From positions 64,001 to 128,000 of the IMG/VR virus record IMGVR_UViG_3300019850_000189: a DNA stretch of 64,000 nucleotides, one strand, 5' to 3'. The translations under genes were made by a program, and so were the position numbers. This document shows positions 9,984-44,583 of this stretch, piece by piece. The stretch's first letter is position 1, and the number at the start of each line of letters is the position of its first letter. The stretch is from a virus. A model generated the notes under the pieces. It was not told the DNA's origin, did no database searches, and saw only the letters and a list, made by a program, of their open reading frames with translations.

Positions 9984-12137
9984 ATGTCTATTATTCCTGT
10001 TATATGCGTTCATGCCGCTACAATCGCTCAGGCTCATGAGAAAGCCTTAAAAGAATTATGGAAAAACGGCATTAGGATTAAAACTCAATATGATGGCCCT
10101 GAGGATCCTCCATCAATAGATGCTACTGCTAATATAACTATTGATGACCCATTGGCAGACCCTATGATTCATAAAGCTTTTCCAGGAGGGATCGAAGATT
10201 TACGCGAATACGTCATGGAACTGAGTGGTCTCAAGGATCATTGGGTGAGAAATATGAATGATGCAGATGATAAACGCTGGGAGTATACATATCATTCCAG
10301 ATTTGCGGATTGGGGCTCTCACTACGAATTGGTTTCCGGTAATCGCACAATAATTTCTCCTTTTGATGGTGAGATTGATCAGATTGATATAGTCGCTAAA
10401 AAACTGGCGCAATGCTCCTATACAAGAAGGGCACAGATGATAACATGGATGCCATATATGGATAATGATATCGAAGATCCGCCATGTTTCGCCGCGGGAA
10501 CTCTTGTATCTACACCATCTGGTCCCATTCGCATAGAAGAACTTCGCGAATCGGATAGTGTTTATGTATACGATTTATCAGCCGGAACATATTATATTAA
10601 TCAAGTGCGCAAACCGTTTAAGAAGAAGAGTGATTGTGTAAAAATAAGCACTCCGCATGCAAGTGCAGAGGTTTCTGAAGAACAATACATGTTCACAAAA
10701 GATGGTTGGATTATGGCTCGCGATTTGCAACCCGGAATGGAAATACGTATGCCAACAATTTGTACTGGCTCAGATGTGTCGGATAGTATGTTTGTTGGAT
10801 TTATGTTTGGGGATGGTTGGTTATCTAGTGGTTTTATTAATAGAAAAAACAGAAAAAAACCTATAAAACGTTGTCAAGTTTCATGCTCAATACATCCGGA
10901 ATCCAATGATTTATGGATAAAAGAATATTTTAATTATCATTCAAACAACAAGGTTCAAATATATGAACAGCGCACAAATAATAAAAAATACGGTATATGT
11001 GGTGTTTCAAAAACCGTATCTATTACAGATAGGAATTTATGGGAAAAATTGATTGATGCTGGTTGTCCTGTGGGTAGAAAAGGGGGGAAAGTTGGTTGGG
11101 ATATGAATGGCAAATCAGATGCTGATTGCAAGGATTTTTTGACTGGCATATTTTCGGCCGAAGGGAGTATTTCTTGGGCGGCGTCTGGTAATAGACCAAA
11201 TATATCTATCAGTATGAAATGGCCAGAAGCAATTAAATTGGTTAGAGAATTATTGAACAAATTTAACATACAACATAAATTTTATATAACATCAACAAAC
11301 GGTTTACATCAACTGCAAATAATGGGCCATGCTGCCATAGAAAAAGCATTAGAAACATTCGATTTTAGGTTGGATAGTAGAAAACAAGCTAAATTTATGT
11401 TGTTAAAAGCCAAGCTGATGAGTTCGAAGATGGCTTTGTTTGAGCGCGCTTCGCGCGTGCGCGAGGCACGCCGTCTAAAAAAGGAGGGAGCTACGCAGCG
11501 TAAATTGAGGGAAAGCATTAAAGGGTTTTATAATCGTTGGCTTGATGAAAGTTATGTCCCATCCTTCAGGTGGCAACCGATTCACGCCGATGAACAGACT
11601 CATAATTCAGTTTGGTCGCCTATTATCAGCAAGATATTCACCGGCTCTAAAGATGTTTATGACTTTGAGGTTGAGCACAAAGATCATGCCATCATTGCTA
11701 ATGGCTATGTGGCGCATAACTGTATACAATCATTATATTTTAGGATTACCGAAGAGATTACAGAAGATATGATGACAGTGTGGCATCTTCATACTAATGT
11801 GAGAATCAGGTCTAATGATGCCTGGGGAGCCTCCTTTATGAATTTGTTTGGTATTACAATGTTTGTTCGAGATGTAATAATCCCAAAAATTAATGAGTAT
11901 CGCGATGTGCCAAGTGAAATATACATGGCAAGATTAAATTGGCAGGCTGATTCATATCATATTTATGGAAAAGATATAAGTGATTTTAAAAAGAGATTCA
12001 TTGATAAGATTGGGATTCAACCACCAGAAAAAAGGTTTTATAATTTTTATGATCCACTTATACAGGAAATATACTCGGAGGCCGAAGAGAAAGTACTTAA
12101 AAAGATAGCGGACTATGACGCAACTCATCCAAGATAA
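9984..12137 (+). CDS. thyA: thymidylate synthase-family protein containing an intein
   Basis: EYTYHSR, RRAQMITW...DPP[C]IQSL, RSNDAWGASFMN, ADSYHIY motifs once the intein is removed. Confidence 0.85.
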   Translation: MSIIPVICVHAATIAQAHEKALKELWKNGIRIKTQYDGPEDPPSIDATANITIDDPLADPMIHKAFPGGIEDLREYVMELSGLKDHWVRNMNDADDKRWEYTYHSRFADWGSHYELVSGNRTIISPFDGEIDQIDIVAKKLAQCSYTRRAQMITWMPYMDNDIEDPPCFAAGTLVSTPSGPIRIEELRESDSVYVYDLSAGTYYINQVRKPFKKKSDCVKISTPHASAEVSEEQYMFTKDGWIMARDLQPGMEIRMPTICTGSDVSDSMFVGFMFGDGWLSSGFINRKNRKKPIKRCQVSCSIHPESNDLWIKEYFNYHSNNKVQIYEQRTNNKKYGICGVSKTVSITDRNLWEKLIDAGCPVGRKGGKVGWDMNGKSDADCKDFLTGIFSAEGSISWAASGNRPNISISMKWPEAIKLVRELLNKFNIQHKFYITSTNGLHQLQIMGHAAIEKALETFDFRLDSRKQAKFMLLKAKLMSSKMALFERASRVREARRLKKEGATQRKLRESIKGFYNRWLDESYVPSFRWQPIHADEQTHNSVWSPIISKIFTGSKDVYDFEVEHKDHAIIANGYVAHNCIQSLYFRITEEITEDMMTVWHLHTNVRIRSNDAWGASFMNLFGITMFVRDVIIPKINEYRDVPSEIYMARLNWQADSYHIYGKDISDFKKRFIDKIGIQPPEKRFYNFYDPLIQEIYSEAEEKVLKKIADYDATHPR
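10485..11720 (+). mobile_element. 412-aa intein with LAGLIDADG homing endonuclease
   Basis: Starts CFAAGTLV, ends VYDFEVEHKDHAIIANGYVAHN followed by Cys; FVGFMFGDGW and FLTGIFSAEGS LAGLIDADG helices. Confidence 0.9.
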
Positions 12138-17579: not shown

Positions 17580-17650
17580 GGAGCATTTGTGTAGTGGTAG
17601 CACGCAGGCCTGTCTAACCTGAGGCAGGGGATCGTTCCCCCTATGCTCCG
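17580..17650 (+). tRNA. tRNA-Asp(GTC)
   Basis: GGAGCAT/ATGCTCC; CAGGC CT GTC TA ACCTG; atypical T-loop ATCGTTC. Confidence 0.8.
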
Positions 17651-17672
17651 CATGAATAAAGAGAGGGATAAT

Positions 17673-18350
17673 ATGGAATTAGGCGGCGACGTATCAGAGA
17701 TTTTGAATGTAAGACGCTATCGTAAATATGGCTATCAACTTGTTTACTTTATGACAACTGGTCATGGCTTTAGTAAGGAGCCATTTAAAATGTGCACAGC
17801 GCTTACGTGGCCTGAAGGATTATATATAGGTGATAAAAAAACGGCTTATTTTCTTTGTGTAAAAAAAGGAATAAAACCCGAAAAGATTCCCAAAAAGCCG
17901 TTGCCCAAGTCAGATAAAGCAAAAAGGCTTTTAGAAAATATTGATGGAGATATTACGCCGTGTTCAATCGGTTTTTGTGATAAAGATCAAAAGTGGTATG
18001 GATGGTCTCACAGAGCCATATATGGCTTCGGTATTGGTAGCAGAGTTAAAAAGGGTGATTGCGGTTATATACCATTTAGTCCCGAAGATATGCTGGAGGA
18101 TATGATTAGATTTGATAGTGATGACAATCACGTTATACTGGGACATTCTCTTCGTGCTGAAGATCCAAATCATGAAATAGAAGGGTTTGGTATACTTGTC
18201 AAAGAGGAAATTAAGTCTAAAAGCGGCAGATCTATATTAAGTACTGATTGGGAACCATATCCCGTTCCTTGGGGTAAGGGGGAATGGAAAGCTAAAACTC
18301 TTGAAGATGCCAAGCAGATGGCCATAAATTTTGCTCAAGGTATTGCATGA
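17673..18350 (+). CDS. hypothetical phage protein
   Basis: CSIGF...QKWYGWSHRAIYGFGIG...AKTLEDAKQMAINFA; GAGGG RBS. Confidence 0.65.
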   Translation: MELGGDVSEILNVRRYRKYGYQLVYFMTTGHGFSKEPFKMCTALTWPEGLYIGDKKTAYFLCVKKGIKPEKIPKKPLPKSDKAKRLLENIDGDITPCSIGFCDKDQKWYGWSHRAIYGFGIGSRVKKGDCGYIPFSPEDMLEDMIRFDSDDNHVILGHSLRAEDPNHEIEGFGILVKEEIKSKSGRSILSTDWEPYPVPWGKGEWKAKTLEDAKQMAINFAQGIA

Positions 18351-18898: not shown

Positions 18899-18970
18899 TC
18901 CTCTCTGATGAAATGGGTATCATAGTTGACCGTTAATCAACCTTTTATGGTTCGAATCCATAGGGAGGAG
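18899..18970 (+). tRNA. tRNA-Asn(GTT)
   Basis: TCCTCTC/GGGAGGA; GTTGA CC GTT AA TCAAC. Confidence 0.9.
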
Positions 18971-19192
18971 AATGAGAAGAAACACAAAAAAATGTCCTAA
19001 ATGCGGTCGCCTTGTGGGCTTGAGAAATTATAAGAGAAAAAGAAAAGCAAGGTCGGGCAGTAAAACAAATAGAAGTATATAGAGTCCTTAGGGATCAGGG
19101 AATGATTGTTCGCATGAGAGGAGTGTTGATAGTATTTGAGAAAATATCAAAATTTGTGCCAAAAAATAGGTTAATGTAGCATATATACAAAT

Positions 19193-19427
19193 ATGGGCAG
19201 GTTCCGTTATAATGCACTAGCAGAGGAATAAGCGCGGCGGTTCGGAAAGACGAACTTAGATTATCAGGTGACTGCCGGCAATAGTTCGGCGCGCCATCTA
19301 ATGCGAGGTTTAATTTAAAACCTCATCACGGCGATTTAATTGATTTAGGCCTGTGGCTGCGAATGCCAATAATCGAAACCAATAGAGATCGCAAAGCGAA
19401 TAATCCGTTGGAAGTCCGCCTGCCCAT
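19193..19427 (+). ncRNA. unidentified structured RNA (~230 nt)
   Basis: Terminal 9-bp stem ATGGGCAGG/CCTGCCCAT enclosing several hairpins (GTTCG-GAAA-GACGAAC, GCCG/CGGC, GAGGTTT/AAACCTC, TCGC-AAA-GCGA); GC-rich against an AT-rich background. Confidence 0.6.
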
Positions 19428-19446
19428 TATTATATTAGGATATGAT

Positions 19447-19623
19447 ATGAATCTTCAAGAAGCGAAAGCACTCGTCGGAAAAACAGTTGAATTTTCCGGG
19501 GCTTTCAGACACATTTACAAGGCCAAAATATTTAAAGTGCGAGAGTTTAGTGACATTATCGTCGCCGAACTGGATGATGGATCGACCGTAATTAATATAG
19601 AATTATTAAGACTGTTAGATTAA
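19447..19623 (+). CDS. hypothetical protein
   Basis: MNLQEAKALVGKTVEF..., likely true start downstream of the structured RNA. Confidence 0.5.
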   Translation: MNLQEAKALVGKTVEFSGAFRHIYKAKIFKVREFSDIIVAELDDGSTVINIELLRLLD

Positions 19624-19627
19624 TAGT

Positions 19628-19699
19628 GCCCCTCAAGCATACTCGGTGATGTGCCGGTTTTGTACGCCGGAGAAGGGAGTTCGATTCTCCCGGGGGGCT
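19628..19699 (+). tRNA. tRNA-Thr(TGT)
   Basis: CCGGT TT TGT AC GCCGG. Confidence 0.9.
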
Positions 19700-19718
19700 G
19701 ATTGAATATTGATTTCAT

Positions 19719-19791
19719 GCCCTCGTAGCTTAATAGGTAAAGCAATTTCTCGGTAAGGAAGAGAGTCCGGATTCAATTTCCGGCGAGGGCT
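19719..19791 (+). tRNA. tRNA-Thr(GGT)
   Basis: GCCCTCG/CGAGGGC; loop TC GGT AA. Confidence 0.8.
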
Positions 19792-19813
19792 CACAGATGT
19801 CTATACATATTAC

Positions 19814-19885
19814 GCCCACATAGCTTTAATGGAAAGCGGGAATTTCGTAAGTTCCAAGTTGCCGGTTCAAATCCGACTGTGGGCT
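19814..19885 (+). tRNA. tRNA-Thr(CGT)
   Basis: GGAAT TT CGT AA GTTCC. Confidence 0.9.
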
Positions 19886-23117: not shown

Positions 23118-23231
23118 CATTCGATCTTTGACATAGAAAAGACTTAAAATATTTGATCCTGGAAGCATATATAATAATAGTATCACATAAGTTCTTTGAG
23201 ATTATTATTAACGTGGCTTGACACGGATAGC

Positions 23232-24038
23232 ATGTCGCAAGGCATGTAAAGGCGGCTTGGCAACCGCCACCGATCGCAAGATCGGCCAATTCAAACAAGC
23301 TGACATCCCTATGGCTTCGCATGCCTGCGGAGCTTGCACCGACATTGGACGAAGACAGCATAGACTGAGGGTAACACTGTAAGCTTATGTTTCTCGTGGA
23401 AAGGATTATTCGTAACCATAACCAATTAGATGTTAGGATGAACAGTAGTTATATTGTCTGAGCTTTTGCCAGCAAGGGCTTTATAGCAGTTTGATAGGTT
23501 GGTGGACATCCAGTACACCGGTCTTGAAAGACGGTTTAGTATCCGGCAGGAGAAAGACAGACAGCGTCCGGCATTTTGTAGGTCAAAAGCCTATGAAACT
23601 GGTGGATCAGCGCGTTGTCGCTATGGGGAGACCCATTTTTCAATGATAGCTCAAAGGTAGAGCACATGTCTTAGAAACACATTATGCTGTTGGTTCAACT
23701 CCAACTCATTGGCTTTATCCGCAAAGACTGGTCCGGTATTGAGTGAAAGCAGCTTAATTCCATGCCCTTCGGGAACATGGACTTTCCGAGGCTCGCAAGG
23801 CTAAAGAAAGTTAGTTGTAAGAAGCACGGCGAGGTTAGCGCCTCCTTATAGCTCGCAAGGCTGACGGTATTCTGAGAACTGAGTAGCTCAATGCGTCACT
23901 GGAAATGCCGCCAGTATAAAAAGGCAGTTGTGTTGATTTACCGTTCCTGGAACGGTGGATAAGTTCTTAAGGCCCGGTTAGCGGCCGAGCTGTACGAGGG
24001 CAAAAGGATTGACATATAGAGTTGTAGTCTCAGGCTTT
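23232..24038 (+). ncRNA. GOLLD-like large structured RNA (~800 nt; ends approximate)
   Basis: Region with no plausible + strand ORF, dense in GCAA/GAAA/TTCG-capped hairpins, inside a tRNA cluster; segments GCAGGAGAAAGACAGACAGCG, TGAAACTGGTGGA and 3' TTGTAGTCTCAGGCTTTA resemble GOLLD as recalled. Confidence 0.7.
23640..23713 (+). tRNA. tRNA-like module embedded in the GOLLD-like RNA (loop CT TAG AA, weak anticodon stem)
   Basis: TCAATGA/TCATTGG acceptor, GCTC/GAGC D-stem, GTTGG TTCAACT CCAAC T-arm; only 3 bp in the anticodon stem. Confidence 0.6.
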
Positions 24039-28626: not shown

Positions 28627-28863
28627 AGTTTGACGGTTCCGGTTCTACGCTGTATATGATAACATATATAGAGGAAACACCGAACATCTCTGCTCTAATG
28701 CAGGAGGCGAAAGCTGTTTGGACTGCAGAGGATGCGACCACAAATAACTCTAGGTGGTGAGCAGGCCAATGATGAGATGGTAGTGGGCAGCTGAAAAGCC
28801 AGTTGAAAAAACTGAGATAGATGTAGAACAAAAACAGAATTCGGGTTATAGGAACCGTCAACT
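28627..28863 (+). ncRNA. rnpB: compact RNase P RNA (~235 nt)
   Basis: P1 TTGACGGTTCC/GGAACCGTCAA; P2 GTTCTAC/GTAGAAC; P3 hairpin; CR-I GAGGAAACACCGAAC pairing with CR-V ACAGAATTCGGGTTA (P4 with bulge); P5 CATCTC/GAGATG; P7 TGCTC/GAGCA; CR-IV-like AGATAGATG. Confidence 0.85.
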
Positions 28864-28879
28864 TAATATAGCATAAGGA

Positions 28880-34222: not shown

Positions 34223-35203
34223 ATGAAAAGTGAAAAGCTTTGGTTAAGGCATCGGATAAATAATATATTAATTGTTGAAGACGAATCCGACACTATGGGC
34301 GTCCTCACTTACGCTCTTAAATCTTTTTTGGAAGACGATATAAAAATATATCAGGCGGGCGGTTGTCAAGAGGCTATTGGCATTTCCCATAGGATCGATT
34401 TAGACTTAGCAATCATAGATTACAAGTTGCCTGATGGATCTGGTATAGAACTCATTAAAGAAATAAAAAAACAAAATAATCTTTTACCTGTTCTGATGAT
34501 TACAGGGTATGGTAATACAGTCAAGGAAGACGCTCTGGAGTCAGGCGTCAATGTGTTTCTCGACAAACCTATTGAATTAACTGAATTTCTGAGTTTGAGC
34601 CGCAATTTATTATCGCTCAGTAGGACAAGAAAAAGACTTGTTGACGCTGAGAATATGATTACAGCACTTAACCGTGCAATTGAAGCTAGAGATGTGTATA
34701 CAGAAGGCCATTCTGCCAGGGTTGCTGCTTATAGTTTAATAATATTTGATAATGCTAATATCGGCAATGGCGATAAACGCGAGGCATTACACATGGGATG
34801 TATTTTACATGATATAGGAAAAATTGGTATACCAGATGAAATTCTCAAATCCAATAAAACACCGCTATCGTCATCCGAATATGATGTCATTAAACAACAT
34901 CCAACTAAGGGCTATGATATATGCAAGGATTTGAGTAGTCTTAAGGCCTCTTTGCCGATTATAAAACATCATCATGAAAAGTTGGATGGTTCCGGGTATC
35001 CGGATGGATTAGTAGAAAAAGAGATTCCAGAGATTGTACAGATATCGACAATCGCTGATATTTATGACGCTTTAACTTCAGATAGGAGCTATCGTAAGCT
35101 CAATAGTCCTAAAGAAGCCATTGATATAATGCAAAAGGAAGAAGTGGATGAAGGTAAACTTAATAAAGATTTTTTCGATATATTAAGATTTAAAATGATT
35201 TAG
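34223..35203 (+). CDS. REC + HD-GYP cyclic-dinucleotide phosphodiesterase (RpfG-like response regulator)
   Basis: ILIVEDE...AIIDYKLPDGSG...FLDKP receiver; RDVYTEGHSARVA, LHDIGKIGIP, HHHEKLDGSGYPDGL, IADIYDALTSDRSYR. Confidence 0.92.
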   Translation: MKSEKLWLRHRINNILIVEDESDTMGVLTYALKSFLEDDIKIYQAGGCQEAIGISHRIDLDLAIIDYKLPDGSGIELIKEIKKQNNLLPVLMITGYGNTVKEDALESGVNVFLDKPIELTEFLSLSRNLLSLSRTRKRLVDAENMITALNRAIEARDVYTEGHSARVAAYSLIIFDNANIGNGDKREALHMGCILHDIGKIGIPDEILKSNKTPLSSSEYDVIKQHPTKGYDICKDLSSLKASLPIIKHHHEKLDGSGYPDGLVEKEIPEIVQISTIADIYDALTSDRSYRKLNSPKEAIDIMQKEEVDEGKLNKDFFDILRFKMI

Positions 35204-41148: not shown

Positions 41149-41220
41149 GTGCCCGTAGCTCAGTTGGTGTAGCTGGAGGCTCTAACCCTTCGTGTGTGGG
41201 TTCGAATCCCACCGGGCACT
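41149..41220 (+). tRNA. amber-suppressor tRNA (anticodon CTA)
   Basis: GTGCCCG/CGGGCAC acceptor; GGAGG CT CTA AC CCTTC; GTGGG TTCGAAT CCCAC. Confidence 0.8.
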
Positions 41221-44174: not shown

Positions 44175-44519
44175 GGGGGTGAATTGGCTTCGACAGAGAG
44201 TAACTGACACTAAAATTTATGCCAAGGTTCGCCAGGCCTTGTAAAACAGGGCGACTTATTAAAATAAATGCTGATGAAAATTTAGCACTTGCCGCTTAAT
44301 TAGCGGCTGTTCTTCTATTATTTGTTTTTGGTAGTAGAAAGAGCATCAGAAACAAAAACTCGTCAACTTACTCAAACTTGTAGGTAAGATGATTAAATTA
44401 TCCAAGATATTCTTTCTTTGGTCGCTTGAGAACCAAGATAGAAGAAAATAATCTCAAGATAAGCATATAAAAAGTAGTGGATTTCTCTCTGGACTCCGGA
44501 TCGTTACCGGACACCTCCA
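44175..44519 (+). ncRNA. ssrA: tmRNA; tag peptide (A)ADENLALAA* at 44270-44299
   Basis: 5' GGGGGTGAATTGGCTTCGAC, 3' GGACTCCGGATCGTTACCGGACACCTCCA with G3-U70; tag ORF ending LALAA*. Confidence 0.92.
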
Positions 44520-44583
44520 TATTATTAACCATTATAGGAGAATATTATAAAGTGTATGCTTCAGCCTGTTCCCAGGGGTATTA

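Follow-up and report, generated by a model that had tools for sequence, protein, structure and literature searches.

The stretch of DNA analysed here (the window, 64,000 nucleotides) is bases 64001-128000 of a 189,375-bp viral contig in IMG/VR (completeness estimate 79%; 35.6% G+C). The gp23-like major head protein of the contig has at most 35% identity to that of any GenBank phage, thus the contig belongs to a distant, uncultured T4-like phage. The window carries a tRNA array at 14.6-41.2 kb, which contains 36 tRNA genes, every one of them on the + strand. One tRNA with the anticodon CTA (41149-41220) is an amber suppressor and was called as tRNA-Pyl by ARAGORN. The window also encodes three recognizable non-tRNA RNAs, namely a GOLLD RNA, a miniature RNase P RNA and a tmRNA (Table 1). 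A tRNA-Leu(TAG)-like gene is embedded in the GOLLD RNA at 23640-23713, and a GCATATATA motif lies upstream of it at 23165. The miniature RNase P RNA is directly 3' of tRNA-Ile(TAT). Its P1-P4 helices and CR-I/CR-V are intact, while approximately 110 nt, most of the specificity domain, are gone.

Several protein-coding genes of the contig are of note. A 235-aa protein encoded within the tRNA array (17643-18350, + strand) matches the Pfam family Tad6, a type I Thoeris inhibitor (E 1.9e-42). Its gene lies 1 kb upstream of the RNA element described below and is kept in L026 and L030-32 (L-numbers label homologue loci and contigs). Also within the array is an unusual phage signalling protein, in which a receiver domain (response regulator) is fused to an HD (HD_5) domain (34223-35203, + strand). 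A 717-aa ORF (9984-12137, + strand) contains Hint and LAGLIDADG domains and thus encodes an intein-containing host protein. Elsewhere on the contig (L003) are two large HNH homing-endonuclease genes and a portal gene with an HNH insert.

Between tRNA-Asn and three tRNA-Thr genes lies an RNA element at 19195-19425 on the + strand. The initial annotation of this region described a structured, GC-rich RNA of no known family within an AT-rich genome, and these points hold. The sequence and its end-to-end pairing, ATGGGCAGG (19193-19201) with CCTGCCCAT (19419-19427), are as it gave them, and the element has a G+C content of 47.7% against 35.6%. A cmscan of window positions 19000-19650 against the 4227 families of Rfam 15 (permissive filters, E ≤ 10) returned no family match on the element. 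The lone match was to the SNORD104 snoRNA (14.3 bits) on the - strand, and was due to chance. The five relatives, searched against Rfam at E ≤ 1, matched only tRNAs, along with chance matches outside the element. No tRNA-like module was detected within the element by ARAGORN or the tRNA model. The single-sequence fold of the element has an energy of −76.2 kcal/mol, with z = −2.58 on the + strand and z = −2.98 on the - strand. Since these z-scores are modest and do not tell the strands apart, the case for a structured RNA rests on comparative data and not on thermodynamics.

Table 1. Window coordinates of the RNA element's parts and of the RNA and protein genes around it.
Feature	Position	Strand	Remarks
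tRNA-Asn(GTT)	18899-18970	+	Conserved upstream neighbour of the RNA element
Promoter-like GCATATATA	19179-19187	+	Ends 6 nt before the RNA; putative promoter
P1, 5' strand GGGCAGGU	19195-19202	+	Pairs with 19418-19425; 8 bp, 4 positions covary over five types
H2	19203-19227	+	Hairpin UCC...GGA with variable loop; conserved AUA follows at 19228-19230
P3, 5' strand GCG	19232-19234	+	Pairs with CGC at 19390-19392
H4	19239-19256	+	Hairpin with invariant GAAAGA loop; 3/6 pairs covary
P5, 5' strand GAUUAU	19259-19264	+	Long-range; pairs with AUAAUC at 19369-19374; 5/6 pairs covary
H6	19267-19295	+	GGUG (19267-70)/CGCC (19292-95), enclosing H7; tentative
H7	19273-19291	+	Hairpin with loop (C/G)AAUAG(U/A), CAAUAGU in the window; 6/6 pairs covary over five types
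H8	19305-19324	+	Hairpin GAGGUUU...AAACCUC, length and loop vary; window, L014, L030
H9 and conserved GCUGCGAAUGCCA block	19326-19368	+	UCACGGC/GCCUGUGG; variable periphery
3' tail AAUAAUCCGUUGGAAGUCC	19399-19417	+	Tail plus P1 3' strand: 27 nt identical in window and L014
P1, 3' strand GCCUGCCC	19418-19425	+	U-run next in L014, L030 and L039, not clear in the window, absent as a conserved feature in L027
58-aa ORF	19447-19623	+	AGGA Shine-Dalgarno at 19438-19441
tRNA-Thr (three genes)	19628-19885	+	Conserved downstream neighbours of the RNA element
GOLLD RNA (RF02032)	23559-24036	+	162.6 bits; approximately 4 kb downstream of the element, same array
Miniature RNase P RNA	28631-28864	+	234 nt; RF00010 end to end, 62.7 bits, E 7.6e-19, under the gathering score of 100
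tmRNA	44175-44522		Phage-encoded; tag ADENLALAA

Homologues of the element were found through its neighbours and not through its own sequence. A BLASTN search against GenBank phages found no homologue. Scans for exact or gapped DNA patterns, run on viral, metagenome and genome collections, returned only chance matches, mostly in GC-rich coding DNA. The patterns were the 18-mer of the 3' end, CAGGTGAC...GTTGGAAGTCC, ATAATCCGTTGGA...CCTGC and ATCCGTTGGAAGTCCGCC (metagenome contigs), and further GGAAAGAC...GGTGAC...AATAG (viral contigs) and GGAAAGAC...GGTGAC...GAATAG (genome contigs). Six viral-contig loci from the scan ending in AATAG (31-62% G+C) were rejected by eye, and the covariance model R1, which was built without P1 and fails to detect the most diverged type (L027), had zero matches in the loci from both GGAAAGAC scans. 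A search for related loci with three neighbouring proteins found none, and a search with the major capsid protein found just short fragments of the capsid region. The relatives were reached via neighbouring proteins on approximately 10 metagenome contigs. A single close homologue of the 58-aa ORF lies on an ENA contig of 2.4 kb (L014), the 97-aa protein encoded upstream of tRNA-Asn has 31 homologues, and a profile search with the small ORF found ten additional homologues. Distant homologues of the 97-aa protein (P0010, P0021, P0025, P0030) occur in other gene contexts that lack the RNA.

The relatives represent five distinct sequence types, here called the window, L014, L030, L027 and L039. 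The window type includes L026, in which the RNA is 98% identical. The RNAs of L030, L031 and L032 are mutually identical, on contigs of 191, 149 and 4.7 kb, and L033 and L038 are partial copies of the same type. The RNAs of L027, L028 and L029 are also mutually identical. The element is 200-260 nt long across all types. Its surroundings are conserved as well. The order tRNA-Asn, RNA, small ORF, tRNA-Thr is kept in the window, L014, L026, L027 and L030-32, and in four types tRNA-Asn immediately precedes the RNA, which starts 7 nt after the tRNA in L027 and 33 nt after it in L030. In the available sequence of L039 the upstream neighbour is an ORF and not a tRNA; the small ORF and a tRNA are downstream. 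The window and L014 share 73% identity in the RNA, as compared to 58-62% in the flanking spacers and 64-70% in the adjacent ORFs.

Because MAFFT misaligns the 3' half of the element, the five types were aligned manually by helix register, using sequence indices. The resulting alignment has eight helices and 43 base-pair columns (188 cells), with 95.7% of the cells canonical, a figure to be read in light of a hand-made alignment that leans towards pairing and holds five independent sequences from one phage clade. Both sides changed in 26 columns and one side in three, while 14 columns are invariant. When the 3' partners were slid by 1-3 nt as a control, 32-39% of the cells were canonical and 3-6 columns appeared to covary. 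MAFFT combined with RNAalifold on four types independently recovered five of the eight helices (P1, H2, H4, H7, and H8), in which 12 pairs have both positions changed; RNAalifold on two sequences gave nine such pairs. The helices contain 16 G-U pairs vs. four A-C mismatches, which fixes the + strand. The types share no ORF in any frame or on either strand, and their indels are not multiples of three.

In the predicted fold the helices are stacked one within another. P1 surrounds H2 and P3, P3 in turn surrounds H4 and P5, and within P5 lie H6-H9 and the UGCGAA block. P1 joins the two ends of the element and has an A-U to G-C change in L027. H2 is UCC/GGA in the window, CCC/GGG in L014 and L030, CCCCU/AGGGG in L039 and CCCA/UGGG in L027. 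An alternative pairing of a 5' UUCC with a GGAA in the 3' tail was dropped, as the covariation favours the local H2 hairpin. P5 is the best-supported helix. It has five different sequences in the five types, with GGCUAA/UUAGCC, GGCCAU/AUGGCC, GUCGUC/GACGAU and GCUGU/ACAGC in addition to that of the window. Even in a hand-made alignment, P5, H7 and P1 can be taken as secure. P3 can form in all five types (GGCA/UGCC, CGCG/UGCG, GGC/GCU and GCA/UGC in the others), and its 3' strand is always followed by a run of (N)AAGAG-like purines. At 3-4 bp, it is the weakest of the predicted long-range helices. The invariant unpaired positions are AU(A/U) after H2, GUGAC before H7 (19268-19272, 5/5 types), the H7 loop AAU(U)AG, the H4 loop GAAAGA and the AAGAG-like purines that follow P3 at its 3' strand.

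The periphery of the fold is plastic, and H6, H9 and H10 are not universal. H6 forms in three types (window, L014 and L030), where one G-C pair has been exchanged for A-U; it has another partner in L027 and is missing in L039. H8 is probably also present in L027, as CAAAU/AUUUG. H9 occurs in three types (window, L014 and L030), where one C-G pair has become U-A, and is missing in L039 and L027; H10 is likewise missing in L039. The UGCGAA block is common to the window, L014 and L027. A 13-nt portion of the 3' tail, AUAAUCCGUUGGA, is identical in L030 too, is replaced by a hairpin in L027 and is missing in L039. H4 is absent in L027. L039 has a tandem duplication (L039:527-572 and 573-607) of a unit of approximately 21 nt, which consists of the GAAAGA-loop hairpin and the GACAG on its 5' side. 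This duplication shows the predicted H4 hairpin acting as a movable module.

Four of the six helices of the initial annotation can be recognized in this fold. Its 9-bp closing stem is conserved in the inner 8 bp (P1, 19195-19202/19418-19425), but the outer extension is not, and the second outer pair is already broken in the near-identical L026. Its GTTCG-GAAAGA-CGAAC, GCCG/CGGC and GAGGTTT/AAACCTC hairpins correspond to H4, H7 and H8, each of which has compensatory changes in the relatives. The remaining two helices are replaced by the long-range P3 and P5, the latter of which had been overlooked. An inner helix of GCGCG (19232-36) with CGCGC (19290-94) can form in the window, but is impossible in L039 and L027 and clashes with H7 in L030; its 5' strand pairs instead with the 3' strand of P3. 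A TCGC-AAA-GCGA hairpin is absent from every other type, and its CGC is the 3' strand of P3. Parts of these two discarded helices thus belong to P3, H6 and H7.

The RNA is followed in all five types by a gene for a small protein (58-62 aa, 42-60% identity), and in all five an ORF with a Shine-Dalgarno sequence begins 18-32 nt beyond P1. L030 and L038 carry an additional ORF, for an unrelated 120-aa protein with a signal peptide, which lies between the RNA and the small ORF and overlaps the start of the latter. In L026, a 124-nt internal deletion cuts the small ORF to 12 codons (L026:1900-1950 vs. 19447-19623). This may be a true deletion or an error of assembly, and it may also be too young to be informative. 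L014 has an AGGAGG followed by an ORF of 14 codons, which was rejected as coding for want of conservation. AlphaFold2, run on an 11-sequence alignment, predicted the 58-aa protein as a short N-terminal helix and a small beta-barrel (pLDDT 93.7), and the protein is thus confidently modelled as a beta-barrel of the SH3/Tudor/Sm/KOW kind. No family was found for it in Pfam, PHROG, PDB-sequence or Atlas searches. Foldseek against the PDB gave only non-significant matches (best E 0.08), every one to a small barrel (Tudor, Gemin6/7, Hfq-like, Spt5 KOW, the OLE-RNA-binding OapB and L35Ae), and the sequence profile touches archaeal L35Ae at a likewise non-significant E of 0.08. Many members of the small beta-barrel fold class bind RNA, but small beta-barrels also serve many roles unrelated to RNA. 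RNA binding by the modelled protein is a lead and not a finding.

A GCATATATA motif ends just upstream of the RNA in the window, and the motif also precedes the RNA in L014 and L039. The window has seven copies (2120, 15708, 19179, 19902, 21445, 23165, and 27278), all on the + strand, vs. 1.4 expected. Across the contig there are 14 copies on the + strand and two on the - strand, mostly just upstream of ORFs and the GOLLD region. The usual context is purine-rich (A/G) before the motif, with an ORF or RNA gene within tens of bases after it. The late-promoter box of T4, TATAAATA, resembles GCATATATA. The motif is probably the phage's own promoter box, perhaps of the late type.

These observations suggest how the RNA may be made. 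The element is likely to be produced together with the phage tRNAs. In the window, transcription would start from the promoter-like site 6 nt upstream of the RNA. In L027 and L030, the RNA would be part of a tRNA-Asn co-transcript and be freed by 3' processing of the tRNA; with only 7 nt between the two in L027, the RNA there must presumably be cut from the tRNA precursor. P1, by joining both ends, would stabilize the RNA. The element would then act as a folded RNA or a small RNA-protein particle and not as a message, and its most obvious partner would be the small beta-barrel protein, the gene for which accompanies the RNA in every type.

Judged from the comparative alignment, the element is a real, uncatalogued and strand-specific multi-helix RNA that is narrow in its distribution, limited to phages and to one clade. 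A conserved spacer with a structure due to chance, or a protein-coding or relic sequence, would agree with folding z-scores that are modest and equal on both strands, and with homologues that all come from one phage clade. Such an origin is nevertheless highly improbable given the 26 compensatory pairs, the five different sequences of P5, the asymmetry of G-U vs. A-C, the lack of a shared ORF, and indels that do not fall in threes. Chance structure is effectively excluded. For the function, we give about an even chance to a stable folded RNA that is made with the tRNAs and acts as an RNA or small RNP, perhaps with the small protein. We favour it because the ends are joined by P1, because the RNA has either its own promoter-like site or abuts the tRNA directly, because no expression platform ties it to the ORF, because the gene directly downstream is not constant, and because the RNA survives where the ORF is truncated (L026). 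What counts against it is the ORF 18-32 nt after P1 in all types, as the RNA may instead be the 5' leader of an mRNA. This is the main rival, and a possible one, even if we consider it less likely than a stable RNA. The element would then be a cis-acting leader of a small-ORF operon. It could act as a regulator (riboswitch-like, or responsive to a protein or tRNA), be bound by the beta-barrel protein for autoregulation, or stabilize the mRNA at its 5' end. Besides the position of the Shine-Dalgarno ORF, a leader is suggested by the co-occurrence of the small ORF family with the RNA in every type, by a promoter-like motif upstream of the RNA in the window with no terminator hairpin found between P1 and the ORF, by the U-runs after P1 in L014, L030 and L039 that could make P1 a terminator-like switch, and by a multi-helix junction with invariant unpaired bases that resembles an aptamer. 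However, no conserved expression platform is seen; no conserved partner sequesters the Shine-Dalgarno sequence, and the window and L027 do not keep the U-run. The first downstream gene in L030 and L038 is the unrelated signal-peptide protein, and the RNA is intact in L026 even though its ORF is truncated. The free gain and loss of peripheral domains (H4, H9, H10) would be unusual for a ligand pocket, though it is tolerated in some riboswitches, and 230 nt is large for a leader of a 58-aa protein.

A catalytic or processing role, or a role as a decoy, is conceivable but lacks specific support, and we consider each of them quite unlikely. In the former, the element would be a self-cleaving ribozyme of the tRNA operon or a trans-acting helper, e.g., a substrate-binding module for the miniature RNase P RNA. 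The same phage has this RNase P RNA without most of its specificity domain, the element lies within tRNA transcripts and abuts tRNA-Asn in L027, and it contains invariant unpaired nucleotides. Its 3' tail includes GGAAGUCCG, which by eye only is loosely like CR-I of RNase P. But this sequence lies at the wrong (3') end, and L030, L039 and L027 have not kept it. A P4-type pseudoknot was looked for and not found, and at E ≤ 10 the element matched none of the ribozyme or RNase P models. As a decoy or sponge in host takeover or counter-defence, the RNA would titrate, e.g., a host RNA-binding protein, a nuclease or the ribosome. Phage tRNA arrays may themselves serve to counter defences that target tRNAs, the anti-Thoeris gene of the Tad6 kind is only 1 kb upstream, and each molecule carries purine-rich loop motifs (one or two copies of GAAAGAC, two or three of AAUAG/AAYUAG and one to three of UGAC). 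This evidence is purely circumstantial; the motifs are short and do not allow a target to be identified. A more specific form of the stable-RNA reading is a new phage RNP in which the RNA and the beta-barrel protein act on tRNAs or the translation apparatus, e.g., complementing the miniature RNase P as a tRNA-binding or processing module. We regard this as doubtful, if slightly less so than a catalytic or decoy role. If it is true, the element would be a new functional RNA class and not another orphan motif. If the element proved to be an RNP, or a regulator that senses tRNAs or a metabolite, it would reveal a new way in which phages control the translation of their hosts.

Several known RNAs share features with the element. 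A group I intron or self-cleaving ribozyme was rejected, since no model matched and the flanks are intergenic with no split gene. Cobalamin and M-box riboswitches, SRP, 6S, Y RNA, T-box and the RNase P S-domain were compared by hand, and the resemblances were short, due to chance and had no Rfam support. Riboswitches and ribosomal-protein leaders resemble the element in that it is directly upstream of an ORF, and thus in the position of a 5' UTR in all five types, and in its P1-closed multi-helix junction with invariant junction nucleotides. The five sequences contain no terminator-like hairpin between P1 and the ORF and no conserved anti-Shine-Dalgarno pairing, with U-runs in three of the five types, and the distribution of the element is narrow and phage-only in contrast to these regulators. 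RNase P type A (RF00010) is similar in the size of its 234-nt miniature copy, its ends joined by P1, its nested long-range helices and its tRNA context. RNase P is defined by a P4 formed from CR-I GAGGAAAGUCCGG and CR-V ACAGAA..CCGGCUUA and flanked by P1-P3, and the element does not have this CR-I/CR-V P4 pseudoknot. The element did not match the RNase P model at E ≤ 10, while the real miniature copy 9 kb away was found with an E of 7.6e-19, and membership of the RNase P family was therefore excluded.

The closest analogues are the T4 RNA C and RNA D (species 1 and 2; rnaC and rnaD), stable non-tRNA RNAs of the T4 tRNA cluster that are co-transcribed with tRNAs and whose roles are unknown (PMC3014915). 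The element is also located inside a phage tRNA cluster, and the analogy is one of place and not of membership. The two T4 RNAs measure 119-139 nt, with a tRNA-like T-arm and acceptor at the 3' end, whereas the element is approximately 230 nt and has no tRNA-like module. Homology was rejected, as there is no similarity in sequence or structure; a cmsearch of T4 69000-74000 with R1 and the filters off had a best score of 7 bits, located off rnaC and rnaD. GOLLD and ROOL are structured RNAs of phages and prophages found near tRNA islands, also of unknown function (PMC12286853). The element shares their tRNA-island neighbourhood, but GOLLD and ROOL are 500-800 nt and form homo-oligomeric cages, while the element is approximately 230 nt, has no evident self-complementary loops and, like its five relatives, does not match the GOLLD or ROOL models. 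At present, it is an orphan structured RNA family of phage tRNA islands in a narrow, uncultured clade. Phage tRNA arrays are emerging as holders of many folded non-tRNA RNAs (T4 RNA C and D, GOLLD, and ROOL), which have been without a function so far. The element joins these as a well-supported family whose nested architecture is unusually clear and which has a candidate protein partner. A phage with its own miniature RNase P RNA, tmRNA and 36 tRNAs thus offers a tractable case for the role of non-tRNA RNAs in translation islands.
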